Shown piece after piece: positions 5,209 to 63,234 of a DNA stretch of 64,000 nt. Position numbers and translations under genes: made by a program. Location of the stretch: contig NZ_SJPY01000002.1 of the NCBI RefSeq assembly GCF_007860185.1, positions 252,374-316,373 on the forward strand, in the 5' to 3' direction. This DNA comes from Novipirellula aureliae (GTDB lineage: Bacteria; Planctomycetota; Planctomycetia; Pirellulales; Pirellulaceae). Every line of letters starts with the position of its first letter. Position 1 is the stretch's first letter. The notes below the pieces were generated by a model that made no database searches, had not been told where the DNA came from, and saw nothing but the letters and a program-made list of their open reading frames with translations.

Positions 5209-5411
5209 TGTTGTTTCGTGGTGTTTTCAACCTAGTCTACGCTTACCGCCCGGGTTTTATTGTGTCCCCCAAGCTAGAAGCCTGGGCCACGTTCTCGGGG
5301 CCAAGCGGCCTTTACAAATTTTGTCCGGTACCAGGTCTACGAAAATGGAACGTTTTGAGTCATACTGTTCCCCCCTGCCCTGCCCCGCTTTTCTGAACTC
5401 GACTTTTATAC

Positions 5412-11512: not shown

Positions 11513-11930
11513 GTCGAGTCAATCGTTTAACGCTTAGCCGAAGGCGCCAGCTTTCCCATAAGCGGTCGCCTTTGGCTTGGCGTTAAACAATAAGTCGAGT
11601 CAATCGTTTAACGCTTAGCCGAAGGCGCCAGCTTTCCCATAAGCGGTCGCCTTTGGCTTGGCGTTAAACAATAAGTCGAGTCAATCGTTTAACGCTTAGC
11701 CGAAGGCGCCAGCTTTCCCATAAGCGGTCGCCTTTGGCTTGGCGTTAAACAATAAGTCGAGTCAATCGTTTAACGCTTAGCCGAAGGCGCCAGCTTTCCC
11801 ATAAGCGGTCGCCTTTGGCTTGGCGTTAAACAATAAGTCGAGTCAATCGTTTAACGCTTAGCCGAAGGCGCCAGCTTTCCCATAAGCGGTCGCCTTTGGC
11901 TTGGCGTTAAACAATAAGTCGAGTCAAACC
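11513..11930. repeat. 81-bp tandem repeat x5 (plus partial sixth), each unit a long imperfect hairpin
   Basis: Unit gtcgagtcaatcgtttaacgcttagccgaaggcgccagctttcccataagcggtcgcctttggcttggcgttaaacaataa starts at 11513, 11594, 11675, 11756 and 11837. The stem GTTTAACGC...GCGTTAAAC has a secondary arm CCGAAGGCG/CGCCTTTGG. Lies between convergent thrS and glycosyltransferase 3' ends. Confidence 0.9.
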
Positions 11931-18095: not shown

Positions 18096-19262
18096 ATGTT
18101 TTCCATTGAACGAACGGATCATTTGGCGACAATCGTTTCGGGGGCTGATTCGTCACGCGAACTTTGGAATTCGCTCGCCGATGGCGTCCCGTTTCGCGAA
18201 CCGAGTTGGTTGGAATCTTGGTGGGAATCGTTTTCAAATGGACAAGAACCCTACATTCTAATCGCACGCGACGCGTCGCGGCAAATTTGTGGCCTGTTGC
18301 CACTCTATCGAAAATCGGGTTCGCCCCGAGTATTGTGCTCCTTTGGCAATAATAATGTCTGCAGCGACTTCGTGTCCGTCATCGCCAAGCCTGAGAATGC
18401 AAAGGAAATCGCAAAGGCAATGGCAAATTTCCTAATCGATCAAATGAACGATTCGAACGATAGTTGGGATCTGATTGAAATGGATGGAATCAGTGAAAAC
18501 GATGAAGTCATGAAAACCTTTGCCGCAGAACTGGGAAAACGTAGTGCGATCGTTCACGCTCAGTCTCGGATGCACACTTGGCTGTTCGAATGTCAAGCAA
18601 CATGGGACGATTGGCTGCAAAAACTAAGTCGCCGAACTCGCCGAAAACACCATTTATTGGAATCTCGGGTCGAGGATACCGACGGCATGGAACTCGTCGT
18701 TGCATCAAATCACGACGAAGTAACCGCGCTCATCGACGGCTTGATCGATCTACATCAACGCCGCTGGAACGCGGTCGGGGAACCCGGCAGCTATGCGGAT
18801 CCGAAAATGCGAAGCTTTATCCAACAAGTCGCCAAGCATTGGCACGACCGAAACCGACTGCACCTCGTTGCGATTCTGATGGATGGAAAAACGATCGGTA
18901 ATGCGCTAAATTACCGAAGTGACGATGGATGCCTCTACGTCTATAGCACTGGCTATGACATCGAGGCGTCAAAACTCGAGCCAGGCCGAGTTTTGACGAC
19001 CAAGACGTTGAAATATGCTCACGAGCAGAAGATGAAAGGCGTTGAGTTTTTGCGTGGTGACGAAGCCTACAAAAAGATGCTCGGAGCCGTTCCAACGCGA
19101 TTGTTGGAATACCGAATCGTCGCACCTCGACTCTGGGCAAAGCTCAGTCATGCCGCCTGGGCTACCCAGTTCGAGCTAAAACAATGGGTACGTCGGCGCA
19201 CAGGCCGCGAAACCCTCGAGGTCGTCGATATCGCCAGTAGCAGCGTCTCTCCGAGACGCTGA
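18096..19262 (+). CDS. GNAT-fold acyltransferase, FemAB/BioF2-like (Acetyltransf_6) family
   Basis: 388 aa; N-terminal ~150 aa plus a C-terminal acyltransferase-like region (YVYSTGYD...GVEFLRGDEAYKKMLGA) resemble the FemAB/CelD-like GNAT family. The 3' end runs into the 60-bp repeat array. Confidence 0.5.
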   Translation: MFSIERTDHLATIVSGADSSRELWNSLADGVPFREPSWLESWWESFSNGQEPYILIARDASRQICGLLPLYRKSGSPRVLCSFGNNNVCSDFVSVIAKPENAKEIAKAMANFLIDQMNDSNDSWDLIEMDGISENDEVMKTFAAELGKRSAIVHAQSRMHTWLFECQATWDDWLQKLSRRTRRKHHLLESRVEDTDGMELVVASNHDEVTALIDGLIDLHQRRWNAVGEPGSYADPKMRSFIQQVAKHWHDRNRLHLVAILMDGKTIGNALNYRSDDGCLYVYSTGYDIEASKLEPGRVLTTKTLKYAHEQKMKGVEFLRGDEAYKKMLGAVPTRLLEYRIVAPRLWAKLSHAAWATQFELKQWVRRRTGRETLEVVDIASSSVSPRR

Positions 19263-19416
19263 ACACACCAAATCTCGGAGTGAATCGGCAACATACGTAG
19301 CAGCGTCTCTCCGAGACGCTGAACGCACCGAATCTCGAAGTGAATCGGCAACATACGTAGCAGCGTCTCTCCGAGACGCTAAACACACCAAATCTCGGAG
19401 TGAATCGTCAACATCT
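19237..19416. repeat. 60-bp tandem repeat x3 carrying the palindrome AGCGTCTCTCCGAGACGCT
   Basis: Unit gtagcagcgtctctccgagacgctgaacacaccaaatctcggagtgaatcggcaacatac starts at 19237, 19297 and 19357. First copy overlaps the last codons of the upstream CDS. Member of the GTCTC/GAGAC palindrome family also seen at 39712, 59143 and 61593. Confidence 0.9.
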
Positions 19417-19499: not shown

Positions 19500-20129
19500 A
19501 TGATCACTATCGTTGATTACCAAATGGGGAATCTCCGCAGCGTCCAGAAAGGGATCGAGCGGATTGGCGGTTCGGCAACCATTAGCTCGGATCCGAAGGA
19601 AATCGCAAAGGCTTCCCAGTTGATCTTGCCGGGCGTTGGTGCATTTGGTGATGCGATGGCTGAAATCAATCGCCGCGATCTGGCGAAACCTATTCTCGAT
19701 TTCATCGCATCAGGACGCCCCTTTTTGGGGATTTGTCTCGGCCTGCAATTGCTGTTTGAACGAGGATTTGAGCACGGCGAACATGAGGGACTCGGGGTGC
19801 TTGCCGGTGATGTGGTTCGCTTTGACCTGCCAAACAACTACAAAGTTCCGCACATGGGATGGAACACCGTTTCCACCCGGAAACCCTGCCGAATCGTTAA
19901 TAAACTCAATGACGAAACACACTTTTACTTCGTGCATTCCTATTTTGTTCGTCCAACCGACCCATCCGTGATTGCACTGGAGTGTGATTATGGCGGTCCG
20001 TTTTGTGCAATGGTCAGCCGTGACAACCTATTTGCGACTCAATTTCATCCCGAAAAGAGTCAAGAAGTAGGGCTAAAACTATTGGCCGAATTCTCGAAGT
20101 TAGGCGACGCAAACGGAGTCGATGAGTGA
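19500..20129 (+). CDS. hisH: imidazole glycerol phosphate synthase glutamine amidotransferase subunit
   Basis: MITIVDYQMGNLRSV, GVGAF, catalytic Cys in LGICLGLQ, HPEKS at the C-terminus. Class I glutamine amidotransferase, 209 aa. Confidence 0.9.
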   Translation: MITIVDYQMGNLRSVQKGIERIGGSATISSDPKEIAKASQLILPGVGAFGDAMAEINRRDLAKPILDFIASGRPFLGICLGLQLLFERGFEHGEHEGLGVLAGDVVRFDLPNNYKVPHMGWNTVSTRKPCRIVNKLNDETHFYFVHSYFVRPTDPSVIALECDYGGPFCAMVSRDNLFATQFHPEKSQEVGLKLLAEFSKLGDANGVDE

Positions 20130-20623: not shown

Positions 20624-20785
20624 CCTCGGTCTGAAAACGAGAACTCCAGCCTAGGACCGCAACAAACCCCAGGCCGTCGCGTTAATAATGAACTTGGCTT
20701 GTTGATAATTCACATCTCAACAGTCATAATCTATTTTGCTTCCCCATACCCAATCCCCACGTTCTTCACCTTCGGAGTGTTAACC

Positions 20786-21526
20786 ATGCTACGTCTTTCG
20801 CTTGCTATGCTGATTGGTTCATTTGTTACCCATTTAATCGCCGATGACGTATGGCAACCATCCGCTGCGGATTCGACCGAATGGAAATCTTTGTTCAATG
20901 GCGAAAACTTGGATGGCTGGGACGGTGACTCTCGACTTTGGTCGGTCGTCGATGGAGTCATCCATGGTGAAACAACCACCGAAAATCCAGCGAAAGGTAA
21001 CACCTTCCTGATTTGGAAAGGTGGCAATGTCAATGACTTTGAAATGAGCCTTTCGTTCCGTTGCAATGCAGTGAACAATTCGGGGATCATGTATCGATCT
21101 GAACAGATCACGAATCAAAACCCATGGTCGATGAAAGGTTATCAACACGAAATTCGAAACGAAGAGATTTTCCCAAACGTATCGAGCTTTATCTACGAAG
21201 AGAAAGGCAAACGAGGCCGCATTTGTCTGGTCGGCGAAAAAGCGGTTTGGACGGCAGATGGAAAAAAGGTGCTCGACGATTCATTGATCAGCGAACCAGC
21301 CTTCAAGGAATTGATGAAGGTCGATGATTGGAATCATGTGACGATTATTGCCAAGGGAAACCGCATCCAACACTACCTGAACGGCAAATTGGTTGTCGAC
21401 TTTACTGACGAACACCCTGAATTGGCTCGTTCGGAAGGCAAAGTCGGACTGCAACTTCACGCCGGAAAACCAATGTGGGCCGAGTTCAAAGACATACGCC
21501 TGCGTGAATTGAACAGCGAAGAGTAG
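20786..21526 (+). CDS. DUF1080 domain protein (3-keto-disaccharide hydrolase-like), secreted
   Basis: Signal peptide MLRLSLAMLIGSFVTHLIA, then LFNGENLDGWDGDSRLWSVVDGVIHG ... GNTFLIWKG ... SGIMYRSE ... GYQHEI ... VGLQLHAG, the conserved blocks of the DUF1080 jelly-roll family. ATG at 20786 chosen over the upstream in-frame codon. Confidence 0.7.
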   Translation: MLRLSLAMLIGSFVTHLIADDVWQPSAADSTEWKSLFNGENLDGWDGDSRLWSVVDGVIHGETTTENPAKGNTFLIWKGGNVNDFEMSLSFRCNAVNNSGIMYRSEQITNQNPWSMKGYQHEIRNEEIFPNVSSFIYEEKGKRGRICLVGEKAVWTADGKKVLDDSLISEPAFKELMKVDDWNHVTIIAKGNRIQHYLNGKLVVDFTDEHPELARSEGKVGLQLHAGKPMWAEFKDIRLRELNSEE

Positions 21527-21540
21527 TACTTTTTTAAAGT

Positions 21541-21588
21541 AGTGGATCTTGTTAAAGATCCTACGCACGGGATCTTTAACAAGATCCA
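21541..21588. terminator. perfect 20-bp inverted repeat with 8-nt loop between convergent genes (putative bidirectional terminator hairpin)
   Basis: GTGGATCTTGTTAAAGATCC-tacgcacg-GGATCTTTAACAAGATCCAC, 15 bp after the DUF1080 stop and 62 bp before the pfk stop on the other strand. No flanking U-tract on either side. Confidence 0.5.
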
Positions 21589-21649
21589 CTACCGCCAACC
21601 CTCGTTCTTATCCAGGCCGTCGTCCCAGGCTACTGCCCTGCCCTGCGGC

Positions 21650-22774
21650 CTACGGACGGCCGAGGCAAACGCCGGTGAGTTCGGCGGTTCGGACCCAGGG
21701 GTGATCCTCCGTCACCAGCTTTTTTTTGCCGGCGATATCCGCTAGCGGTAGCGCTTCGAATCCGTCACCGCGAGCTGCGACCATGACACCATAGGTCTGG
21801 TTGTGCAGCAGTTCTGCACAGGATGCACCGAGCCGAGTCGCCAGAATGCGGTCGGTAGCCGATGGCGTGCCGCCACGTTGCAAGTGACCGAGAATGGTCA
21901 AGCGTGATTCGATTCCTGTCAACTCTTCCAATTTCTTCGTTAACTTGAGCGTATTACCAACATGGTTTTCATGGAATTCGGCCAGTTCTTCTGACGCTTG
22001 CTTGCGTTCTTTCTTTGAATCGGCTTCTTTTTTCTGGCGAGCTAATTCTTCGATCTTTTCCGATTCGATCGCCGTCATTGCTCCTTCGGCAACGGCCACG
22101 ATGCTGAATCGACGTCCGCGCCGAGCACGTTCTCTGATCGCGCCTGCGACCGATTCGATCGAGTAAGGGATTTCAGGGATCAGAATCGCATCGGCTCCAC
22201 CCGCGATCCCAGCTCCAAGGGCCAACCATCCGGCGCGATGCCCCATTGTTTCGACCACGATGATGCGATGATGGCTCGTTGCGGTCGAATGCAATCGATC
22301 GATGGCTTCGGTGACAATTTCCAATGCGGTATCAAAACCGAACGAAACATCGGTACCAAAGATGTCGTTATCAATCGTCTTGGGGAGGGTGATCACATTG
22401 AGCCCCGCGTCGGCCATACGTAGCGCATTTTTCTGAGTACCGCCGCCCCCGATGCAAACGACGGCATCGAGCCCATGTTTACGGTAGGTATCGACGGCGG
22501 CCTGAGTCATATCCTCGGTTCGATCACCGATCGGCATTTTGTGCGGTTTATCGCGACTCGTTCCGAGTATGGTGCCTCCATCGGTCAGGATCCCAGCGAG
22601 TTGTTCCCCATCGATACGTAAAATCCGATCTTGGGTCAGCCCTCGAAAACCGTCGCGAAAACCGATGACGGCCATGTCAAATTCATCCATCGCCGCCTTG
22701 CCGACTCCTCGAATCGCTGCATTAAGGCCAGGACAATCACCGCCGCTCGTTAAAATTCCAATTGATCTTCTCAC
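21650..22774 (-). CDS. pfk: 6-phosphofructokinase (PFK-A family; phosphoryl donor not resolved)
   Basis: [19 protein letters not shown], ...[11 protein letters not shown]..., [20 protein letters not shown]. The GGDGS box is GGGGT here, so PPi-dependence cannot be excluded. Confidence 0.85.
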
Positions 22775-37689: not shown

Positions 37690-37723
37690 ATTTGGATTTC
37701 TGGTTCAATTTGATCGTAGCTTA

Positions 37724-37900
37724 GGTTTCCAGCCTGGACTCCAATTTTTCCCAGGCTGGAAGCCTAGGCTACGTGAATCGGTTAATGCCTGAACGCCAAT
37801 TTCCCCCAGGCTGGAAGCCTAGGCTACGTGAATCGGTTAATGCCTGGACTCCAATTTTCCCAGGCTGGAAGCCTAGGCTACGTGAATCGGTTATTGCCTG
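37724..37900. repeat. ~54-bp tandem repeat x3 carrying the GCCTGGACTCCAATTTT and CCAGGCTGGAAGCCTAGG motifs
   Basis: ccagcctggactccaatttttcccaggctggaagcctaggctacgtgaatcggttaatgcc repeated three times with variants, in the 223-bp gap between two co-directional HlyD genes. The GCCTGGACTCCAA core recurs at 1594-1624 (reverse), 9043-9060 and 25668-25690. Confidence 0.85.
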
Positions 37901-37912
37901 GACTCTAACGGT

Positions 37913-40147
37913 CTAAAAATACATCTTCAAGTTTGCTCGAATCATTTCGATGGCATCGTAAAACACCACGTTAACCAGTGGCAGATCCTCACATTGGAAC
38001 ATGACCCGAATTGGAGTCCCGTTCACGGAACCACGGTTTTGAAGCGAGCGGCATAGCTCCATCGACTTCTCGGATGATTCGATTTGCAGCACGACTGCTT
38101 TTGCATCGGTTCCGTCCTTGGTGTTGCGGATCACCGGACCGATCGATTGCATCGTCAATGGCAACGGTTGGTCTTTTGCATCGTTCATCGTTGCGACTGC
38201 GGACAGGACGCCTTTTTGGTTTGCATGATGGACGGGATCGATTCGGGACAGTGGCACACGCGCGTCAACGAACCATCGAGTCTCATTGCCAATAACTTCC
38301 AATAAAGCATCTCCGCGATTGACGGGTCGACCTTGTAAACGCTGCTCGATTTGCCACGCATCCACGACACCATCGTTTGTCGCTCGTATGACCAGCGATT
38401 GTTTCACTTCTTCGAGATCGGCTAATTGTTGATCAATGGTTTGCAGCTCTTCCGCCAACAAACTTCGCTCACTTTGCAATTGTTCGCTACGGTCGGTTCG
38501 GTTGGAAGCCGTATCGACGAGAGCGGTCATGAAAGCTGATTGCTTCTGAATCAGAATCGATCGCCGGCCGATCAACGCGGTCATTTGTTGCTCAAGCGTA
38601 GGATCGCTCATCGACAACAGTTTCTGACCGCTTGTAACCGATTCCCCATTTGCGACATGGATCGATTCGATGACGGCCGACCTTGGCGCAAAAACTCGTT
38701 GCACGTCTGCTGGCCGAAGTACCGCCGGTGCAGTCACTCGCATCGGAACGGGGTAGAGTGCTGCAACCGCCACAAGAGCCATGAAGAGGATGCCAACGAC
38801 GGGGTTGAACCACTTCGCACGACGTCGCGAATGGATTTGGTTCGCCAATGCCCCGATCACGCGCCCCATGGGAATCGCTTCGAGCATTCGACGATGCCGA
38901 ATCGCTAACCCCGTGTGCAATGCGATGCGGCAGAGCGGTTCGCTTAGCAAATCGTCGAGCGGTTCCGAACCGCTGCGGACGAATCCTACCAAGCAAACGG
39001 CATCGCATTCTTCTGAACTGGCAACGAAACGAACTTCTAAATCGGAAGATCCTCCCTCTTGTTCGTCCGGAAGCATAATACACGAGGTTGCGGGACAATA
39101 GTACTCGTTGGCGACCGCTTCGATCTGTTTCGCTGCACTGCCGTTCCGGTCGATCGTACCAACATGACTCACCGCAACCAATTTGCAATCGTTTGCTTCG
39201 ACGTAGCACAATGCAACCCGGTCAAGGGGAAAAATCTTGGCGACCGAGTCGACCGCGAGCATTTCGATAGAACGGCTGTTGGTTTGGGCATGAAGCGAAG
39301 CAATGATCGCATCGACTTGGTCGTTTACACGTGCTTTGTGATCGAGACAGCGAAGTTGATCGTTGCGCAAAAACTCGCCAGCTAAATCTGCCATTTGAGC
39401 GACGAAACGCAGGTAGCCACGCTGGGTCGCGATCCCGCAATCGGGTTCAAGAAAGACTTCGAGGACATACGAAGGATGCGGCGAGATCGGATTGGACTCG
39501 ATCGGTACGACCGCCGCAGCCACATGGGTTGGATTGGCTGGAAGAGCGGAATCGGTAGCCCCGGGAGTTGCCGGAACAACGACCGGCTGTCCCGAGGCAA
39601 TCACTTCCGCAATCATTTGCAGGTGAGTGTTTGCCGATTCAGACGGAATCGTTTGGTCTGTCACCTTGCCAATCCGATGAGCAACCGAAAACGTCCATTC
39701 ATCAGTAGATCCGTCTCTCCGAGACGGACAGCCCGGCACCGTGGTTTCGTCTCTCCGAGACGGACAGCCCGGCACCGTAGGTTCGTCTCTCCGAGACGGA
39801 CAGCCCGGCACCGTAGGTTCGTCTCTCCGAGACGGACAGCCCGGCACCGTAGGAGCGTCTCTCCGAGACGGACACTCCCTCGTATCAACATTCCAAATCA
39901 CAACGCCTTCTGCTGCCATAGCCACCAGAATACGGTTGGCTAGCATTCCTAGAAATTGGTGACGCGAGGCATGACTGCGAGCCGCCAGTGCCACTTCGCG
40001 AACAATGTCGGCGATTTCACGCCGCGTTTCTTGGACGAGTGGGTTATTTTCGCCCGTCGACCGCTGCGGATGCGGCGCAGCGTTACCACCTGGAGCAGGT
40101 CCAGAAGGAGAAAAGACGAACGGTTGGTCGTGAACATCCGCTTGCAC
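37913..40147 (-). CDS. HlyD family adaptor protein with large N-terminal cytoplasmic GAF-like region and an in-frame 12-aa x5 repeat
   Basis: 744 aa. N-terminal ~450 aa is soluble with GAF-like blocks, then a TM helix (VVGILFMALVAVAALY), then a HlyD-like periplasmic domain (coiled coil LAEELQTIDQQLADLEEVK; beta-strands). Residues ~90-150 are CPSRRD(A/E)PTVPG x5, encoded by the palindromic 36-bp repeat. Confidence 0.5.
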   Translation of the reverse strand: MQADVHDQPFVFSPSGPAPGGNAAPHPQRSTGENNPLVQETRREIADIVREVALAARSHASRHQFLGMLANRILVAMAAEGVVIWNVDTRECPSRRDAPTVPGCPSRRDEPTVPGCPSRRDEPTVPGCPSRRDETTVPGCPSRRDGSTDEWTFSVAHRIGKVTDQTIPSESANTHLQMIAEVIASGQPVVVPATPGATDSALPANPTHVAAAVVPIESNPISPHPSYVLEVFLEPDCGIATQRGYLRFVAQMADLAGEFLRNDQLRCLDHKARVNDQVDAIIASLHAQTNSRSIEMLAVDSVAKIFPLDRVALCYVEANDCKLVAVSHVGTIDRNGSAAKQIEAVANEYYCPATSCIMLPDEQEGGSSDLEVRFVASSEECDAVCLVGFVRSGSEPLDDLLSEPLCRIALHTGLAIRHRRMLEAIPMGRVIGALANQIHSRRRAKWFNPVVGILFMALVAVAALYPVPMRVTAPAVLRPADVQRVFAPRSAVIESIHVANGESVTSGQKLLSMSDPTLEQQMTALIGRRSILIQKQSAFMTALVDTASNRTDRSEQLQSERSLLAEELQTIDQQLADLEEVKQSLVIRATNDGVVDAWQIEQRLQGRPVNRGDALLEVIGNETRWFVDARVPLSRIDPVHHANQKGVLSAVATMNDAKDQPLPLTMQSIGPVIRNTKDGTDAKAVVLQIESSEKSMELCRSLQNRGSVNGTPIRVMFQCEDLPLVNVVFYDAIEMIRANLKMYF
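39712..39885. repeat. 36-bp tandem repeat x5 (CGTCTCTCCGAGACGGACAGCCCGGCACCGTRGKTT) lying in-frame inside the GAF-HlyD CDS
   Basis: Copies start at 39712, 39748, 39784, 39820 and 39856 (last degenerate). The core CGTCTCTCCGAGACG is the same palindrome as in the intergenic arrays at 19237, 59143 and 61593. Confidence 0.9.
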
Positions 40148-44431: not shown

Positions 44432-44490
44432 AGTGGCTGGGGCCTCTTGCCCCAGCAAGCTGCGTTTGGAAGCCACAGCGACGAAAGAAA
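44432..44490. repeat. solo copy of the GTGGCTGGGGC...GCCCCAG...GGAAGCCACAGCGACGAAAGA hairpin element
   Basis: gagtggctggggcctcttgccccagcaagctgcgtttggaagccacagcgacgaaagaaac, 37 bp after the lipoprotein stop. Same family as the 1349-1552 array. Confidence 0.7.
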
Positions 44491-55715: not shown

Positions 55716-58700
55716 CTAACGGGTTGCCGGAACGTCGGTGATGTAAATCAAACCTTCAGCGCCGGGGACAAGCAAACGATTACCAACCGCAACCGGGGCG
55801 GCTGACAACGGCTGACCGATATCGGATTGCCCTATCAATTCACCACTTGCCGGGTCGTAAGCGATGATCCATCCCGGTTTGCCGGCCAACACCATCACGT
55901 CACCTACCCGAACCGGAGCCGCAACGGGATCGCCCGCGGGAGCGTCAAGTTCAAAGCGTTGTTTACCCTTGGAATCGTAGGCACGAAGTTTGCCATCACT
56001 TGTGCGGAGCAAACATTCATCGCCCGCCTGGACAGGCCCCCAAACGGCTCGGCCATCCAACAGGATTCGGAACGCTTCGTTTAGACTACTCAGATCATAA
56101 CCGACCAAAAAGTCAGCCGCTGGGCCGCTCGTCGTCCCGACGTACACGCCACCGACAACAGCGGCAGGCCCCAGTAACGGCGTTTGTATGTCTTTACTGG
56201 CCAATTCGTTGACCTGTTCGCCAGCCCGTAACCGATAAATCTTTTTGCGGCTATCGGCAATCACGACCTGGTCCGGATCATTTGGCAATGTCACCGGAAC
56301 GGACCATACCACGGTCGATTCGGGGGCTGCGGCTGGTTGGAACGGACTGCCTAACATGATGCCGGTTTCATAATCCATCAACACAACGCGGCCGGTACTC
56401 AGTGGAACGAGTAATCCGCCCCCTGATATGATGGCGCCACCACCGACATCCTTCCCGCCGGGATCACTTCCGCCTACGTGTGCGGTCGGTTTGCCGGCAC
56501 CGAGCCCGAGTTGCAAACGTCTTAGCTTCTCTCTTCTACGGTCAGGATCGTAGACAATGATCTCGCCCGAACCGTTCTGATTCAGCATCACGTAGACGTT
56601 CTCGTCAACCTTGATCGGGTTTTCAAATCGCATTGCAACGCCCGAACCGCCTGGATTTTCGATCGGCCCCTTGGTCGAACCGGTTTGCAACGATTCACGA
56701 TTGATTTCGAACAATGTCGCTTGAGTCGTGATCGCATGATAACTCTGGTTCGCCGGATAAGGCGTAATCATCGCAACCGGGACACCGACATCGGTTTGCC
56801 AAATCTCTTTTCCCGTTTTCGCATCAGCGGCGGTCATACGGATTGCCGACGTTCCACGAAGCACACGAGCGTGTACGAGCGTATCATCGCTAGCGAACGG
56901 TTCGCCGATAAAGTTATCGGCTTCATGCTTGAACCAATCTTGCACAACGCGCCCTGTATTGATCTGCAGCTCATAGCGTCCGATGCGAGTTCCGGTCACC
57001 CACATTTGACTCTTGCTGACGGCCATTTGAGTATTTGTCGGACGATCATACGTGGCAACCTGTTCCGCCACGATACTGACCTTTTCACGTTCAGCCGTGG
57101 GCTCGACTTCGATGACGACCACCTGACCAAGGTCGGTCAAGACGATCACACGGCGACCTTGAACGAGTGGTTTGATTTTCACATTTCCGGTCAAACGAAT
57201 GGGTGCCTGTGCCGGCTTGAGCGATTCGCCACTTTCGTCCAGCGCAAGGATATGCACGCGAGCGAAGTCGGTCCCCGCGTTTTCAAAGACAAACAGATGC
57301 TCCATCAGTGGCACGGGTGCAACCGCAATCGCGCCTTCGGCATGTCCCACGTAGTAGCTTTCCAAGCAAGAACCATCACGTGTGTTGAGCACATACAAGT
57401 TGCTGTGGTTCCCCGGTTGGTAAGCGCGTGCGGTTCGAGGATCGACACCAGGGCCTGCGTCGAGCGGTTGTGGGATCATGGTCGCCCAATTGGTTTCACC
57501 CGAATCGGCATCAAGAACCGCCAACCGCCCCGAAACGCTGGCAACATAGACATCATCACGAACCGCATTGGGTTCACTGAATGGCTCACCGATTCTCGTA
57601 CGCCACCGGAGAACGCCATCTTCGCCATTAAAACGTTGGACTTCGAGTTTCTTTGATTCGCTAAGCAGCACTCCTGATCCGCCTTCAACACGCACCGGTA
57701 AATGACCTTGACCATAGCCAACGAATTTCCGCCACTTCAAATTGCCGGTTTCGCCATCGAACGCTAACACGGCACCGCCTGCGTCGAGATACAGAATCTG
57801 ATCGGACAAGTCGAGTGCTTTGCCCCCAGTGACGGTCGTCAGCACGATCGACTCGGTCGAATCATCGACCTCCGACGCATCGACGACTTGCGGCAAATCG
57901 GTTGCTGGCTTGACCAAGGTTTTCTGGATTTGGCTCGCCGATTGAATCAATTGACTGAGCCGCTTGTCATCACCGAGTTCGGGGAATTCGCGTAGCAGTT
58001 CAAACCGGACATCGTAGGCTTCCTTGGTGTTCTTGGCATCGAGAGCGGATTGCATCGCAGCGACCGATTCGTCGAGCCGGACGTTGCGGTTGATGTCACG
58101 GCGAACACGGTCGCGAGTTTCTTCGACCGTCTGAATCCTCGCTGCCAAGCTCGTTCTCAAACTGCCGGTAATGTAGTTCGGGTTGTCCATCAACTCCATC
58201 TGCTCCGCCAATCGTCCGAGCAATTGTTCCTTCTCGGGGGTATCCTCTGCTTCGCTTGCAGCGTTCGCGATATTCTCGGCAATGTCGACAAGCAATGCGG
58301 CCAAGTTAGCTCGCTCGTCGTTCAAGCCAAGTTCATTCTCAATCGTTGGCAATTTTTCTTTTGCCAAATCAAGTGCCACGGTCGGATCCGTCATCGTCTC
58401 AGCACGATACAGTTCGATCATTACCAAGCGGGTTTTCGCAATCGATGAAAATTGGTGCGTATCGCCATAGGCTTCCAAGAATCCGTTGTAACGCTCTTGT
58501 GCAGGCACGAAGTTCTGTTGATCGTACAACGTGTTCGCTTCGCCGATGTATTCGTCGGCACTTTGACGCGTCAGTAGCGAATACAGACCATAGCCGGAAA
58601 GCAGCAAAAGAATGATGATGCCGGCAAAACCGTAGATTTTAAACGAGTCCCAAACCGATTTGTGTTCGGGTGGCTTTGGCCGCGAACGAACCGGACGCGA

Positions 58701-59111
58701 ACCGCCCGATCCAACGCCGTCACCAACCGCTTCGACCGGGACCGCTTCGACCGGCTCCGCGTCGACGGCAACCGCTTCGACCGGAACCGCTTCGGCAAAC
58801 GGCTCAGCCTCGACCGCTTCGGCTTCGGCAAACACATCGTCACCACTACCGTCAGAGGCGATCGCTAGATCGTCCATACCACCTGCAACGGCCACCGCCC
58901 CGTCCGCTTCCTCGTATTCACCTTCGCGAATTTCGCTGATCAGTTTCGTAGCTTGAAAACGTGTCAATTGACCATTGTCGACCAACAACTTGGCAACCGC
59001 CTCGGGGGTCACGCGAGTTCCTTGGTCCAACTGCTCTCGAAGAGCTTCGATAATTTCCTGATCGAGCAACCCACGGCGTTCGAGCCGATCGATCAATTCG
59101 TTAGCAAGCAT
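55716..59111 (-). CDS. giant PQQ-like beta-propeller repeat protein with N-terminal cytoplasmic domain and TM anchor
   Basis: 1131 aa. Acidic low-complexity stretch (EAVPVEAVAVDAEPVEAVPVEAV), one TM helix (IYGFAGIIILLLLSGYGLYSLL), TPR-like helical region. Then more than 10 PQQ/BamB-type blades, each with an A-x-D-x-x-T/S-G-x-x-x-W signature (DGETGNLKWRKFVG; DADSGETNWATMIP; DAKTGKEIWQTDVG; DPASGELIGQSDIG). Confidence 0.6.
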   Translation of the reverse strand: MLANELIDRLERRGLLDQEIIEALREQLDQGTRVTPEAVAKLLVDNGQLTRFQATKLISEIREGEYEEADGAVAVAGGMDDLAIASDGSGDDVFAEAEAVEAEPFAEAVPVEAVAVDAEPVEAVPVEAVGDGVGSGGSRPVRSRPKPPEHKSVWDSFKIYGFAGIIILLLLSGYGLYSLLTRQSADEYIGEANTLYDQQNFVPAQERYNGFLEAYGDTHQFSSIAKTRLVMIELYRAETMTDPTVALDLAKEKLPTIENELGLNDERANLAALLVDIAENIANAASEAEDTPEKEQLLGRLAEQMELMDNPNYITGSLRTSLAARIQTVEETRDRVRRDINRNVRLDESVAAMQSALDAKNTKEAYDVRFELLREFPELGDDKRLSQLIQSASQIQKTLVKPATDLPQVVDASEVDDSTESIVLTTVTGGKALDLSDQILYLDAGGAVLAFDGETGNLKWRKFVGYGQGHLPVRVEGGSGVLLSESKKLEVQRFNGEDGVLRWRTRIGEPFSEPNAVRDDVYVASVSGRLAVLDADSGETNWATMIPQPLDAGPGVDPRTARAYQPGNHSNLYVLNTRDGSCLESYYVGHAEGAIAVAPVPLMEHLFVFENAGTDFARVHILALDESGESLKPAQAPIRLTGNVKIKPLVQGRRVIVLTDLGQVVVIEVEPTAEREKVSIVAEQVATYDRPTNTQMAVSKSQMWVTGTRIGRYELQINTGRVVQDWFKHEADNFIGEPFASDDTLVHARVLRGTSAIRMTAADAKTGKEIWQTDVGVPVAMITPYPANQSYHAITTQATLFEINRESLQTGSTKGPIENPGGSGVAMRFENPIKVDENVYVMLNQNGSGEIIVYDPDRRREKLRRLQLGLGAGKPTAHVGGSDPGGKDVGGGAIISGGGLLVPLSTGRVVLMDYETGIMLGSPFQPAAAPESTVVWSVPVTLPNDPDQVVIADSRKKIYRLRAGEQVNELASKDIQTPLLGPAAVVGGVYVGTTSGPAADFLVGYDLSSLNEAFRILLDGRAVWGPVQAGDECLLRTSDGKLRAYDSKGKQRFELDAPAGDPVAAPVRVGDVMVLAGKPGWIIAYDPASGELIGQSDIGQPLSAAPVAVGNRLLVPGAEGLIYITDVPATR

Positions 59112-59142
59112 GTTTTGTATTAGTTAGTATTGGATGAAAAGG

Positions 59143-59380
59143 TGTAGTAGGCGAGTCTCTCCGAGACTCGTAATGTATCGTAGTAGGCGAGTCTCTCCGA
59201 GACTCGCAATTTCAGCGTCTCAATTTCAGCGTCTCAGTTTCAGCGTCTCAATTTCAGCGTCTCAATTTCAGCGTCTCAATTTCAGCGTCTCGGAGAGACG
59301 CTGCTACTGTTCAGCGTCTCGATTTCAGCGTCTCGGAGAGACGCTGCTACTGTTCAGCGTCTTGGAGGGACGCTGCGACG
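59143..59380. repeat. composite repeat block: 35-bp unit x2 (GTAGTAGGCGAGTCTCTCCGAGACTCG), 14-bp microsatellite (AATTTCAGCGTCTC) x6, and two copies of CAGCGTCTCGGAGAGACGCTGCTACTGTT
   Basis: Read directly. The last element is the reverse complement of the GTAGCAGCGTCTCTCCGAGACGCTG core of the 19237 array. Lies between the PQQ-protein start and the ExbD stop. Confidence 0.9.
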
Positions 59381-59386
59381 GATTGG

Positions 59387-60163
59387 CTAATCAAAACCGT
59401 CGACTTGGGTGACGGAGATGTCGACAAACCCGGCGATCGTGCCCGCGTCCATCGCGTCCACGAGGAATTGCAGCTTGGCCATTTCGTGAACCTTAATGGC
59501 CAACTTCATGCCCTCCGAGCCATTGGTCATCGCCTGTTTCAGGGCAATCGTCAAATTCTGTTTTCCTGGTGTCTCCCTTTCCCAATCATTTGCCATAACC
59601 AAGAAGGAACCTCGTTCATCGATTTGCACATCGACCTTGTCAAGATCTTCGTCTTCATTGGAAACGTTAAAGCTTGCCTCATCACTTTGTTGACGCGGCA
59701 CTTCGATCGACTTTTGCAAACTAAAACTGGCCGTCACCATAAAGAAGATCAATAACAAGAACGTCACGTCGACCATCGGTGTCATGTCGAGTTCATCGTC
59801 ATCGCGAGGCTTCCGCTTGGGAATCGCATCGCTATCGTCGTCTTCCCAGACCGCTGGGGAGATGGGTTCTGGCATGATCTCGGCTTTTCCCGATGCCGAG
59901 CCCGATGAGGACATTGAAGCTTGCTCAAGCGGAACGGCTTCGACTGCGATTGCTTCGGCGGGCATGACATCGACAGGCAAAGCTTCAAAGTACTCCGTTT
60001 CGATCATATCGTCACTCGAGTCGACTTCGATGACGGCATCGTCCGCTTCGGGGACGTGGATCGCTGTTTCACAATTCGAGCATCGGACACGCCGACCAGC
60101 CAAGCGGGCATTGACACGAAGTAGGCTTCCGCACTGAATACATTTGACTTCGATCGCCGACAT
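59387..60163 (-). CDS. exbD: ExbD/TolR-family biopolymer transport protein with N-terminal zinc-ribbon
   Basis: N-terminal C-x2-C...C-x2-C (CIQCGSLLRVNARLAGRRVRCSNC). Acidic linker, then the canonical ExbD TM plus periplasmic domain (DMTPMVDVTFLLLIFFMVTASF). Confidence 0.7.
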   Translation of the reverse strand: MSAIEVKCIQCGSLLRVNARLAGRRVRCSNCETAIHVPEADDAVIEVDSSDDMIETEYFEALPVDVMPAEAIAVEAVPLEQASMSSSGSASGKAEIMPEPISPAVWEDDDSDAIPKRKPRDDDELDMTPMVDVTFLLLIFFMVTASFSLQKSIEVPRQQSDEASFNVSNEDEDLDKVDVQIDERGSFLVMANDWERETPGKQNLTIALKQAMTNGSEGMKLAIKVHEMAKLQFLVDAMDAGTIAGFVDISVTQVDGFD

Positions 60164-60165
60164 CG

Positions 60166-60672
60166 TTATTGCTCCTTGACTGCCACGTAGGTGGATTCAA
60201 TATCTTCAAAGGAATCGCCGATTATTTTCTGCACTCGTGTTACCTGGCCAACTTTCACATCTTTGTCTCCCATAATCATCACATGGTTTTTATTACGTCC
60301 TTGAGACTTCTCGAGTTCACTGGTGACGTATTCGACGATCTCGGACGCTTGCGTTGCTTCGTCGCGACTGAATTCGGTCCCATCGAGCCGTTCGACAATC
60401 GCGTCCTCACCCGCCCCTGGCTTGATGAAGATTACGGCCGAGTCTTTTGCTGAAATGGCCAATGCGTTATCCGCTTCAGGAATCGAGCCAATTTGTGTGG
60501 GGTCCATTTTCGAGGCGACGACAAAGAAGATGAGCAGCAAGAATGTGATGTCGATCATCGGCGTGATGTCCATTTCCTCGTCATCACGCTTCTTGCGAGG
60601 CAGCATCACCTCCTCTTCTTCTTCTACGTCCACATCGACTGCGTCATTGTTGGTCGGATTTGCGGTACTCAT
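60166..60672 (-). CDS. exbD: ExbD/TolR-family biopolymer transport protein
   Basis: MDITPMIDITFLLLIFFVVASK signature. 168 aa. 2-bp gap to the downstream exbD. Confidence 0.8.
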   Translation of the reverse strand: MSTANPTNNDAVDVDVEEEEEVMLPRKKRDDEEMDITPMIDITFLLLIFFVVASKMDPTQIGSIPEADNALAISAKDSAVIFIKPGAGEDAIVERLDGTEFSRDEATQASEIVEYVTSELEKSQGRNKNHVMIMGDKDVKVGQVTRVQKIIGDSFEDIESTYVAVKEQ

Positions 60673-60683
60673 GTCAGGCTCCC

Positions 60684-61415
60684 TTATCGTTGGGGCGATT
60701 GCATTGCTGACGCCATTTGCGGGTCGGTCGCCGCAGCAGCAGGCCGAGCGGACACCGCTTGACCACCGACCGCACCGCCAGCCAAAGCTTCACGATAAAT
60801 CGACATAAACCGACCAAGCCCCGAGCCGACCAAGTCTTCCATCTTGGCGATTTTGATATTCACATTGGCGGTCAAAATCATCAATGGAATCGCGATCGCC
60901 AAACCGCAGGCGGTCGTTCGAAGAGCGATATTAATGTCACCAGCCAAGTCGGATGGGTTGACGGACGCCGAAGACGCCAACGTGTTGAACGCCCCCATCA
61001 TCCCAAACACCGTCCCGAACAGCCCGATCATCGGTGCCGCCTTGATGACCGTACTGACCCAGCTCAACCGATACTCGAGATCGCTCATCACGTCACGCTG
61101 GAAGCGGTCCATGACAAATTGGCGAGCCCGCTTGTAGCCGAGGTCGCGATGGTGCATCGACATTTCGACAATTTGTGGGATCGCCCGCGCGTCGCCTTCA
61201 CAGTACTCCGCAACCCCCTCAAAATCGCGGTCGGTGACCATTTGTTCAACGTCATCCATGAAGACATCCTGCTCGTCCTCACTCTTGAACCGTTTCTGAC
61301 TCACGCGAGTCCAGACGACAACAATACAGTAAAGTCCCCACAACGCAGCCCCGGCCAACGCACCGTAGGTGGCTTGTGAGATGATATCGAAAACAGAAAT
61401 TTCAGCGAACAGCAT
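60684..61415 (-). CDS. exbB: MotA/TolQ/ExbB proton-channel family protein
   Basis: Three TM helices with the conserved APMIGLFGTVFGMMGAF segment and C-terminal TM. 243 aa. Confidence 0.8.
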   Translation of the reverse strand: MLFAEISVFDIISQATYGALAGAALWGLYCIVVVWTRVSQKRFKSEDEQDVFMDDVEQMVTDRDFEGVAEYCEGDARAIPQIVEMSMHHRDLGYKRARQFVMDRFQRDVMSDLEYRLSWVSTVIKAAPMIGLFGTVFGMMGAFNTLASSASVNPSDLAGDINIALRTTACGLAIAIPLMILTANVNIKIAKMEDLVGSGLGRFMSIYREALAGGAVGGQAVSARPAAAATDPQMASAMQSPQR

Positions 61416-61592
61416 CGGTTACTCGTGTGGATTAGGTCCGTAAGAATGGTCATGGTGGAGGTAGTGTAGTATCTTTCTACCTAGAATCACCAAAAGCGGG
61501 CATGATTTCCAGCACTATCCTAACCGATTACGAATATTTATGGGGTGAGGGTGCGACAAGATTTCACGCCGTATCGAAAAAAAGGTTTAGCC

Positions 61593-62043
61593 TAGTAGCG
61601 GCGTCTCTCCGAGACGCCGAACACAGGCCAGCCCAGTAGCGGCGCCTCTCCGAGACGCCGAACACAGGTCAGCCCAGTAGCGGCGTCTCGCCGAGACGCC
61701 GAACACAGGTCAGCCCAGTAGCGGCGTCTCGCCGAGACGCCGAACAAAAGGTCAACCCAGTAGCGGCGCCTCTCCGAGACGCCGAACACAGGCCAACCCA
61801 GTAGCGGCGTCTCGCCGAGACGCCGAACAAAAGGCCAACCCAGTAGCGGCGTCTCGCCGAGACGCCGAACACAGGTCAGCCCAGTAGCGGCGTCTCGCCG
61901 AGACGCCGAACAAAAGGTCAGCCCAGTAGCGGCGCCTCGCCGAGACGCCGAACACAGGTCAGCCCAGTAGCGGCGTCTCGCCGAGACGCCGAACACAGGC
62001 CAACCCAGTAGCGGCGTCTCGCCGAGACGCCGAACAAAAGGTG
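61593..62043. repeat. 41/42-bp tandem repeat x~11 (AGTAGCGGCGTCTCGCCGAGACGCCGAACA[C/A]A[G/A]G[T/C]CA[G/A]CCC)
   Basis: Eleven head-to-tail copies with 3-4 variant positions per unit. Each carries the GCGTCTC(G/T)CCGAGACGC palindrome. There are no unique spacers, so this is a minisatellite, not a CRISPR array. Confidence 0.9.
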
Positions 62044-62292
62044 CAATAGGCCCCCCGTCTGTCGTACCTAAACCGACAGGCTCGAAGCCTATCCCACACT
62101 CTTATCCTACGCTCTTATCCTACGTTGAGGTTCATTTAGCAAAACCCCATCCTGGCTTGGGCCTTCATCAGACCCAACGGACGATTGCAAAATGCAAAAG
62201 GGGAATTTGCAAAATGCGAAAGGGAAGACGCGAGGTCTGGAGAGCATTGTTCAAATTGCAATGTTCAAATTGCCATTTGCAATCCTCTATCC

Positions 62293-63234
62293 TTAGCGTC
62301 TTGGTTTTCGGTAGCGTTGGCTGGTGACCACGAATTTAAAACCGCTTCCATCCGGCTCGCTTTCAAAGATGGTCTTGGCGATTTCTTTTACCGTATCGTG
62401 TCCATTGGCCTTGGCGTATTGCATTTCGGTCTGCTCGAGCAATCCTTCCAAGTTCTCAGGGATAAACTTCAGGATTTGCCGGCCAGGCAGAGGGATCCCC
62501 GCTTTTTGTAGCAATTGGCGGTCATATTGCAATAGCGGTCCTGGCGTGGTCCACATGAAATAGAGACGCTTCTCATTCTCGGTATCGACAATACGGTACT
62601 TCTGAGGGCTTCCCGCCAAATTTTTTGCCGTATCAACGCCCTGGATCGATCCGCCGAGCGCTCCGAGTTCAATCTTGTAAAAATCAAGCTGGGTTGCATA
62701 CCCATTGATATTCTTGGCACTAAACTTCAGTTGCCAGCGTTCGGCACGCGGAATGATGTCCTCACCCTCTCCCAACGGTCCCGGAGGTCGACTATCCCCT
62801 TTTCCGTCCGTTGCCGAAAAGTTGGTAGCACTGACCGTCGCCGCCACGCTACTGACCGCATTGGTGACCGCCATAATGTTTTCTTCGAGTGTCGGTTCCA
62901 GCAATTCCTCGACCTCTTCGGCGGCAGGCGGATCGAAGTCTCGCTCGGTTCCCTCGGCATTCGGGCCTCGGCCCGCCGCATTCTCGATCGACGGTTTGAT
63001 CGGCTTAGGCGGGAATTCAAAACGCGTAAACAACCAAACCAGGAACAACATCAAAACGAAGGTCCCGATGAACAAAATCAACGACAGGAACAGACTGGTG
63101 ACAATATCAAAACGGCTTGTACGCAGTTTTTGACGCTCTTGGAGCCGCTCAAGCCGCCGCTGTTCGAGTTCAGCGGGTGTGGCTGAATCGGCTGGGACCG
63201 TATCAGACGATGATTTATCAGCGACCGACGACAT
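62293..63234 (-). CDS. hypothetical single-pass membrane protein (paralog 1 of a tandem pair)
   Basis: 313 aa. Polar N-terminus, one TM helix (IVTSLFLSLILFIGTFVLMLFLVWLF), proline-rich linker, conserved C-terminal ~160-aa domain (ERWQLKF...YFMWTTPGPLLQYD...QRYRKP). That domain is ~70% identical to the next gene. Confidence 0.5.
   Translation of the reverse strand: MSSVADKSSSDTVPADSATPAELEQRRLERLQERQKLRTSRFDIVTSLFLSLILFIGTFVLMLFLVWLFTRFEFPPKPIKPSIENAAGRGPNAEGTERDFDPPAAEEVEELLEPTLEENIMAVTNAVSSVAATVSATNFSATDGKGDSRPPGPLGEGEDIIPRAERWQLKFSAKNINGYATQLDFYKIELGALGGSIQGVDTAKNLAGSPQKYRIVDTENEKRLYFMWTTPGPLLQYDRQLLQKAGIPLPGRQILKFIPENLEGLLEQTEMQYAKANGHDTVKEIAKTIFESEPDGSGFKFVVTSQRYRKPRR

Follow-up and report, generated by a model that had tools for sequence, protein, structure and literature searches.

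Repetitive extragenic palindromes (REPs) are short hairpin-forming repeats, carried by bacteria together with a dedicated REP-associated tyrosine transposase (RAYT). Here, we report the analysis of a palindrome family that forms four repeat arrays in a 64-kb stretch of the planctomycete Novipirellula aureliae Q31b (contig NZ_SJPY01000002.1, positions 252,374 to 316,373), hereafter the window. We find that the palindromes are very probably GTAG-tagged REP elements that serve as substrates of a RAYT of the Y1 HUH type, and that the arrays in the window are probably secondary amplifications of these elements. Throughout the phylum the repeat adjoins genes of one Y1 HUH family, its usual form in other genomes is an inverted doublet, and a member of the same transposase family is encoded elsewhere in the N. 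aureliae genome.

A GTAG-headed hairpin dispersed among Planctomycetota

The palindrome is far more frequent in the window than composition would explain. With up to two mismatches allowed, GCGTCTCNCCGAGACGC has 38 strand-matches where dinucleotide shuffles predict 0.06, and none of the shuffles attained that count. Copies of the strict core GTCTCNCCGAGAC number 18 on the plus strand and two on the minus strand, in every case inside one of the four loci. A strict head-plus-stem scan placed a GT[AG]G head on 24 window copies. Read by eye, each copy opens with GTAG (GTGG once), and behind this head come a stem of 9 bp and a loop of 3 nt, which is TCC or, in the largest array, GCC. The inner stem GTCTC/GAGAC is nearly invariant among the units. 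Folded as single-stranded DNA (ssDNA), the units have energies between −9.9 and −11.2 kcal/mol (z of about −4); an intragenic variant containing a G·T pair folds at −6.0 kcal/mol.

To place the element in a wider context, one genome per species was scanned for GTAGCNGCGTCTCNCCGAGACGC. At least 120 stretches are found among the matches listed, compared with about 0.3 matches expected by chance (21 specified bases, 596 Gb, both strands, uniform composition). Counted by accession prefix, these stretches come from at least about 50 assemblies, and the element lies on up to 11 contigs per other assembly among the matches listed; the 64 kb of N. aureliae hold four loci. The assembly labels among the matches listed are Pirellulaceae, Lacipirellulaceae, Thermoguttaceae, Planctomycetaceae, Fuerstiella and Mariniblastus, together with one Phycisphaera bin and Rhodopirellula europaea 6C. 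A few bins bear other labels; there, the flanks are shared with a Pirellulaceae contig (L076 versus L045) or the family flanks are lacking. Among 2.9 million viral contigs there was a single hit, whose flanks are those of Rhodopirellula copies, which argues against a phage vehicle.

Elsewhere, the 23-mer usually forms one half of a REPIN-like inverted doublet (CAC-GTAG-hairpin...hairpin-CTAC-GTG), which reads CAC-GTAG-C-N-GCGTCTC-TCC-GAGACGC-N′, then 3–10 nt, then N-GCGAGTCTC-GGA-GAGACTCGC-CTAC-GTG, and whose canonical form folds at −24.4 kcal/mol (z −6.7). Heads-out inverted doublets account for 70 of the 82 adjacent pairs in other genomes, with a core-to-core spacing mostly of 22–27 nt, and 57 single arms are present in the same set of loci. 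Statistics on the hairpin itself were taken from 210 core-bearing hairpins in 120 loci of other genomes. An unpaired GT[AG]G head at a fixed offset is present in 189 of them, and CAC directly precedes the head in 118. The outer stem positions covary, with CG, AT, TA and GC pairs all represented: position 2 is Watson–Crick in 96% of hairpins (60% when shuffled) and position 4 in 86% (40% when shuffled), positions 1–3 being partly fixed by the search pattern and position 4 and the partner arms being free.

The elements are mostly extragenic, as 21% of cores fall in stop-free stretches of at least 600 nt, compared with 82% of random positions. In 54 complete doublets, no 3–5-bp target-site duplication (TSD) rose above expectation at any boundary tested; counted from the outer GTAG...CTAC ends, offsets 3 and 4 show only a weak dinucleotide excess. 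Taken together, the unpaired head, the hairpin, the covariation, the doublets, the lack of a TSD and the extragenic placement constitute the anatomy of REPs and REPINs.

In some genomes the doublet lies within a longer repeated unit. This arrangement, with conserved flanks, is found in the metagenome-assembled genome (MAG) SJ293 (L003, L024, L037, L040, L056, L057, L072, L086, L094, L107 and L118) and likewise in Rhodopirellula (L023, L025, L074, L109 and L125), examples being ...caataccgttcaacgaagcac-GTAGCC...gagtcctgagccttttggtgaaattcgcgagtctcgg and acgtgagcgggagtcattgggcttgatcac-GTAGC...ctacgtgaggt. These lineages thus propagate longer REPIN-like units.

REPs adjoin the genes of a RAYT family

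The initial annotation had suggested a search for a TnpA(REP)-like Y1 transposase, and such a family is found beside the REPs. RAYT sequences are available in the supplement to a 2013 paper by Di Nocera et al. (PMC3733652). As tblastn queries we used published RAYTs and terminal inverted repeat-associated tyrosine transposases (TIRYTs), namely E. coli b228, R. baltica RB11751 and RB2408, O. terrae 2468 and aba3477. Against the 120 loci, the published RAYTs gave matches in three (L028, L052 and L108), in which the open reading frames (ORFs) are 221–224 amino acids long and carry the motifs VVMPNH[AV]HF, FWQ and RRYIAxNP. Neither the published RAYTs and TIRYTs nor the new RAYT matched the 64-kb window, and the transposase is therefore not in the window. 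Family REPs lie within a few tens of bases of the RAYT ORF at all three loci. Doublets stand on both sides of the gene in L028 and L108; in L052 the contig ends 98 bp from the gene start, so the REPs are confined to the downstream side. An in-frame TAG stop near 2507 breaks the L108 ORF (1940–2599, in a Mariniblastus MAG), after which the frame continues, and this homolog is possibly a pseudogene or the product of a sequencing error.

With the L028 protein as query, 243 homologs were retrieved from a database, and the Joint Genome Institute (JGI) lists several of them under the name RayT or REP-associated tyrosine transposase. The source genome also encodes a member: N. aureliae Q31b_44130 (P0213 in our analysis) is 53% identical to the L028 protein and lies on a 598-kb contig different from that of the window. 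Four further homolog loci were added, from Roseimaritima multifibrata (CP036262.1), two long ENA contigs and one Pirellulales MAG, and family REPs stand on both sides of the gene in all four. In total, REPs adjoin the RAYT gene in 7 of 7 loci from other Planctomycetota, and do so on both sides in six, where a REP is found no more than 272 bp upstream and no more than 128 bp downstream. At the most divergent RAYT, the flanking REP is altered correspondingly, to GTAGCCCGCTCTCGCCGAGAGCGGG. In R. multifibrata (L121 2500–3000 and 3690–3960), the RAYT gene sits between 108-bp tandem arrays, the unit of which is a heterodimeric doublet pairing GTAGCAGAGTCTCTCCGAGACTCG with CCGCCTCGGAGAGGCGGAGCTAC; tandem amplification is therefore not peculiar to N. 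aureliae.

The protein family has the residues expected of such an enzyme. Invariant in 25 family sequences are the HUH motif (H134 and H136), W173, Y194 and N198. W173 is the tryptophan that precedes Q where Q is present (FWQ), and Y194 and N198 belong to Y---NP, which is the signature of class 2 TnpA-REP (PMC6006769). An N-terminal extension of roughly 100 amino acids comprises LPHWxQAG...FITWR and then a helical insert. The only significant match of a family profile was PDB 4ER8 (E 5e-4), chain A of which is the RAYT of E. coli in complex with a REP hairpin. An AlphaFold (AF2) model of P0213 (pLDDT 86.7, pTM 0.85) had 4ER8_A as its best Foldseek match in the PDB (E 8.9e-6, probability 1.00), with global TM-scores of only 0.41 when query-normalised and 0.52 when target-normalised; the next matches were the TnpA proteins of IS608, ISDra2 and IS200.

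Four arrays in the N. aureliae window

Tandem repeats in the window were located with Tandem Repeats Finder (TRF). The four palindrome loci reported in the initial annotation are all present, within a few bases of where it had placed them. Its description of the palindrome as near-identical in all loci applies to the inner core GTCTC-NCC-GAGAC and not to the stems (GCGTCTC, CCGTCTC/TCGTCTC and GAGTCTC), since these differ by locus. Three of the four loci are intergenic, each between same-strand genes. Within the window, 15 neighbouring pairs of REPs are head-to-tail and 1 is head-to-head, and the doublet arrangement is limited to 59146–59379 and to the decayed 60-bp units at 19237.

The first array (19237–19414, plus strand) consists of three tandem 60-bp units (TRF 60 bp × 3.0, 93% matches). 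Besides the REP GTAGCAGCGTCTCTCCGAGACGCTG, every unit contains a second arm, inverted and decayed (AAATCTCGGAGTGAATCGGCAACATAC; TCTCGGAGTGA...CATAC); the unit is a whole doublet, triplicated. The neighbouring genes, both on the plus strand, are a GNAT/FemAB-like gene (18096–19262) and a GATase class-I gene (19500–20129). The stop codon of the GNAT/FemAB-like ORF falls within the first REP of the array, and the last few residues of its protein are thus REP-encoded.

The second array (39705–39874, heads on the plus strand) contains five tandem 36-bp REP units, each GTAGGTTCGTCTCTCCGAGACGGAC plus 11 nt (TRF 36 bp × 4.7), and lies within an HlyD-family gene (37913–40147, minus strand) that is 100% identical to Q31b_14510 of N. 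aureliae. The array is in frame and encodes CPSRRDEPTVPG five times, the 36-bp unit being a multiple of three. The resulting insert of 58 amino acids is in the N-terminal region, at a site where the Novipirellula orthologs vary in length and sequence; a faint precomputed GAF_3 match on an ortholog is the sole hint to a domain type there. In an 82%-identical ortholog the 58 residues are absent and the DNA has no REP at the site, reading GATACC followed by AGTGACGAGTGG, as opposed to GATACG, 174 bp and GATGAATGG in the window. The insertion and its expansion are therefore recent. Downstream of the same gene, tandem repeats occur both in N. aureliae (window 37690–37912) and in the 82%-identical relative (L126 5483–5662), with a unit of 55 bp in the window versus 34 bp in L126; only short pieces are common to both, such as GGAGTC[TC]AGGC...CCGATTCACG. 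By this comparison, the repeat hotspot downstream of the gene is evolving fast.

The third locus (59143–59380) lies between the stop of an exbD-like gene (59387–60163, minus strand) and the start of a PQQ beta-propeller gene (55716–59111, minus strand), and is composite. Two head-to-tail REPs of the GAGTCTC variant, GTAGGCGAGTCTCTCCGAGACTCG[T/C], spaced 36 bp apart on the plus strand (59146–59206), make up the left arm of an inverted doublet that has been expanded. The right arm comprises three reverse REPs on the minus strand (59283–59379), with CAGCGTCTCGGAGAGACGCTGCTAC at 59283–59307 and 59326–59350 and a decayed copy at 59355–59379. Between the arms, an unstranded 14-bp unit, CAATTTCAGCGTCT, is repeated 6.1 times according to TRF (59207–59291); this unit is made up of the doublet spacer and the left half-stem of the reverse REP, that is, an amplified half hairpin. 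TRF also reports a 43-bp repeat × 2.2 at 59267–59362. The whole of 59146–59379 is one doublet with both arms duplicated. The initial annotation had read the locus as carrying the palindrome in reverse-complement orientation, which describes the three minus-strand copies but not the two plus-strand copies at 59146 and 59182.

The fourth and largest array (61589–62036, plus strand) consists of eleven head-to-tail REPs with a 41/42-bp period (TRF 41 bp × 10.9), with 11 GTAG heads, GTAGCGGCGTCTCGCCGAGACGCCG as the commonest loop variant and an uncompensated T>C stem change in three copies. The ‘spacers’ between the hairpins are 16–17 nt long and are all variants, by 1–3 substitutions, of one sequence; the array is a single REP with 16–17 nt of one flank, repeated. 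It starts roughly 175 bp upstream of the start of an exbB-like gene (61415, minus strand) and ends roughly 255 bp downstream of the stop of the ORF at 62293–63234. A 134-amino-acid ORF on the minus strand (61592–61996) is wholly encoded by the array and is almost certainly spurious. An exbB-exbD-exbD-like operon (59387–61415, minus strand) is bracketed by REP arrays, because the third array occupies the gap between exbD and the PQQ gene and the fourth lies upstream of exbB.

Proposed dispersal by a RAYT and local amplification

By analogy with E. coli TnpA-REP and IS608 TnpA (PMC3479197, PMC6006769), the RAYT would bind the REP hairpin on ssDNA, read the unpaired GTAG foot, and cut and rejoin the strand, and such reactions would spread REPs, singly or as doublets, over the chromosome. 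The CAC conserved in front of the head may also take part in this recognition. A REP or REP doublet would arrive at a locus first and be amplified there afterwards, with replication slippage or unequal recombination between hairpin-prone copies generating head-to-tail units that include a few flanking bases, here of 60, 36, 14/43 and 41/42 bp; one such amplification would have proceeded in frame inside a gene and been tolerated. The half hairpin repeated six times inside the doublet at the third locus points to slippage, as it is expected of slipped-strand mispairing at a hairpin and not of a transposase that acts on whole hairpins. Slippage is also favoured by the array ‘spacers’, which are variants of one sequence.

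This account bears out the interpretation in the initial annotation, which had seen in the palindrome a REP-like element that belongs to a dispersed family and seeds local tandem amplification: the unit has the GTAG head and hairpin of REPs, it occurs on many contigs of at least about 50 assemblies, nearly all labelled Planctomycetota, and the anatomy of the four arrays supports secondary local amplification. Beyond what had been noted, the element takes the inverted doublet as its canonical form in other genomes, the window also contains a sibling REP family, and the family of the four arrays is phylum-wide rather than genome-specific.

Several points weigh against the REP–RAYT reading. The NCBIfam model REP_Tyr_transpos (NF047646) gives E 1e-14 and 54.7 bits against a cut-off of 80, and Pfam Y1_Tnp gives no hit for P0213 and 16–24 bits for its relatives against a cut-off of 23. 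With scores below or around the curated cut-offs, the P0213 family is, as far as sequence and model indicate, a divergent RAYT clade and not an equivalog. Enzymatic activity of the planctomycete RAYT is putative, by analogy with the characterised enzymes, and the presumed cognate REP of Q31b_44130 is deduced from the REPs beside its homologs. The dominance of head-to-tail pairs in the window is atypical for the family and for REPs generally, the N. aureliae copies were counted within the 64-kb window, and slippage or unequal recombination as the amplifying mechanism is proposed from the anatomy of the arrays.

Host functions could stand behind these features in two ways. We consider it unlikely, if worth bearing in mind, that the REP–RAYT pair is an ancient, vertically kept and domesticated system of Planctomycetota as a whole, in which hairpins and arrays serve the host rather than merely persisting selfishly. 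On this account, the 13-nt core would have stayed invariant while the RAYTs diverged to about 45–55% identity because the hairpins serve a host function, which might be operon insulation, transcript-end stabilisation or chromosome organisation. A little harder to credit is that the palindromes are host-function sites to which the RAYT association is secondary, such as binding sites of a nucleoid or regulatory protein, operon insulators or mRNA-stabilising 3′ hairpins, an explanation compatible with their being REPs. The identity of the core among genomes with such divergent RAYTs speaks for it, as do the bracketing of the exbB-exbD-exbD operon and the precedent of E. coli REPs, which bind integration host factor (IHF) and gyrase and stabilise mRNA (background cited in PMC3733652 and PMC3479197). 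However, the arrays have no T-run or terminator-like signature, their orientation relative to transcription varies by locus, some array copies contain uncompensated stem mutations and one array lies within a coding region, while the constant association with RAYT genes is as predicted for a transposase substrate.

Known RNA elements were sought as well. An intrinsic terminator was rejected as a candidate: no terminator-like site was found at any array in 58900–62500, and the hairpins are followed by GAACAC... or GGACAG... with no T-run. Rfam gave no match at gathering thresholds in the whole window and, at E ≤ 1 in 58900–62400, two noise hits only (a nematode snoRNA and a miRNA). The window contains no tRNA or tmRNA.

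The doublets are short, inverted-ended and dispersed, as would also be true of miniature inverted-repeat transposable elements (MITEs) mobilised by a DDE-type insertion sequence (IS) through cut-and-paste at the CACGTAG...CTACGTG terminal inverted repeats. We regard this origin as very improbable, given that the 54 complete doublets lack a 3–5-bp TSD, that the recurrent neighbour is a Y1 HUH gene and no DDE transposase recurs, and that single arms are common (57).

An equally slight chance attaches to the arrays or their copy numbers being assembly artefacts of a short repeat. The assembly is in multiple contigs (of two N. aureliae proteins, one lies on a 996-kb contig and the other on a 598-kb contig), short reads would hardly suffice to size an array of 450 bp with a 41-bp period, and copy numbers are given here as in the assembly sequence. 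Nevertheless, the arrays contain internal variants in higher-order 83- and 124-bp patterns and have unique flanks, the intragenic array leaves intact the frame of the conserved gene that contains it, and similar tandem REP arrays lie beside the RAYT gene of R. multifibrata in CP036262.1, a single 7.2-Mb sequence.

A CRISPR array has unique spacers of about 21–72 nt between identical repeats and usually cas genes nearby. The 41/42-bp array resembles a degenerate or orphan one in its 25-nt palindromic repeat, regular spacing and 11 copies, but this reading, which the initial annotation had already set aside, is refuted by the spacers, which at 16–17 nt are all variants of one sequence; moreover, the neighbours are exbB/exbD-like genes and an uncharacterised ORF rather than cas genes, and the repeat is found as isolated doublets in dozens of genomes.

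Comparison with known systems

The element most closely recalls the REP/BIME system of E. coli with its TnpA-REP YafM (PDB 4ER8) and the REPIN–RAYT system of Pseudomonas fluorescens. Common to all are an unpaired 5′ GT[AG]G head on a short hairpin, heads-out inverted doublets that are mostly extragenic and lack a TSD, a Y1 HUH gene flanked by the same elements, and HUH, WQ and Y---NP motifs, with a fold closest to 4ER8. In contrast to those systems, the present one belongs to another phylum and has another hairpin sequence, its transposases form a planctomycete clade with the extended N terminus and a score below the NCBIfam equivalog cut-off, its core is conserved across orders and classes rather than being species-specific, and in this window it forms head-to-tail arrays, not doublets.

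Among planctomycetes, GTAG REPs, RAYTs, several coexisting families, clusters and intragenic copies have been described in Rhodopirellula baltica; the flanking of RAYTs by REPs is known too, and tandem REP clusters with flanking DNA and in-frame intragenic REPs have been described for other genomes (PMC3733652). The R. baltica families GTAG-20/21/22 and the RAYT RB11751 (PMC3733652) are similar to the present system in being planctomycete GTAG REPs of several families with several tyrosine transposases. They differ in that RB11751, as a tblastn query, matched neither the window nor any of the 120 loci, not even the three with the RAYT described here, and in that the peptides listed as encoded by GTAG-20/21/22 REPs fit no frame of GTCTCTCCGAGAC (PMC3733652). 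The REP family appears to be undescribed in the literature searched, and is probably distinct from GTAG-20/21/22, as judged by this tblastn result and these encoded peptides. A full-text literature search for the core sequence found no paper, and a literature search on Novipirellula aureliae found nothing relevant.

Tandem REPs with segments of flanking DNA have been reported for GTAG-1 of Thauera sp. MZ1T and GTAG-23 of Thermomicrobium roseum (PMC3733652). The Thauera arrays flank specific operons, of exopolysaccharide (EPS) genes (PMC3733652), which recalls the bracketing of exbB-exbD-exbD here. Sequences and hosts are different, however, and one of the arrays in the window includes the amplification of a half hairpin. 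With IS200/IS605 elements (IS608 and ISDra2), the system shares a Y1 HUH enzyme type that recognises ssDNA hairpins, in line with their rank as next-best structural matches; unlike them, the RAYT gene is accompanied by no tnpB and lacks IS ends that differ between left and right, the hairpins occur on their own as many dispersed copies, and the tyrosine motif is of the RAYT type, Y---NP. The likeness to CRISPR arrays is limited to the outward appearance of palindromic repeats at regular intervals.

Genomes of different orders, with RAYTs that are only about 45–55% identical, have the same 13-nt core and often the same 23-mer over its full length. Judging from these sequences, the depth of conservation is the one unusual feature of the REP family.

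Other palindromic repeats in the window

The window contains a second REP-like family with a GT[AG]G head, in which the core is GGCT-TCC-AGCC and an 8-bp stem is closed by the same TCC loop. It forms a 68-bp × 3 array at 1348–1551 and occupies 37716–37905, with a 55-bp × 3.2 array at 37732–37905, and single copies are present at 5268–5290 (minus strand), 44432–44454 and 62075–62097 (minus strand), one of them directly beside the largest array of the first family. In two places it also has the same ACGT[AG]G...C[TC]ACGT flanks, as heads-out doublets. This second family is probably the substrate of a related RAYT.

A third palindromic array, at 11513–11927, is unrelated: an 81-bp unit repeated 5.1 times with 100% identity, it consists of units that are each a long imperfect inverted repeat (CGTTTAACGCTTAGCCGAAGGCG...CGCCTTTGGCTTGGCGTTAAACA) and have no GTAG head. 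Finally, an inverted pair of GTAGTGGATCTTGTTAAAGATCC (plus strand at 21538, minus strand at 21592; 21538–21592) lies between the convergent ORFs 20699–21526 and 21650–22774, and may represent a further hairpin with a GTAG head, or else a structure resembling a bidirectional terminator.

Implications

The current view of how REPs work is unchanged by these findings. They explain conspicuous repeats in planctomycete genomes that otherwise show up as spurious ORFs (such as that at 61592–61996), blurred gene ends, peptide repeats in proteins and CRISPR mimicry. They also add a well-defined REP–RAYT pair outside Proteobacteria, with an unusually deep conservation of sequence, and this pair is a useful test case for the idea that REPINs and RAYTs are long-lived, vertically inherited partners of their hosts.

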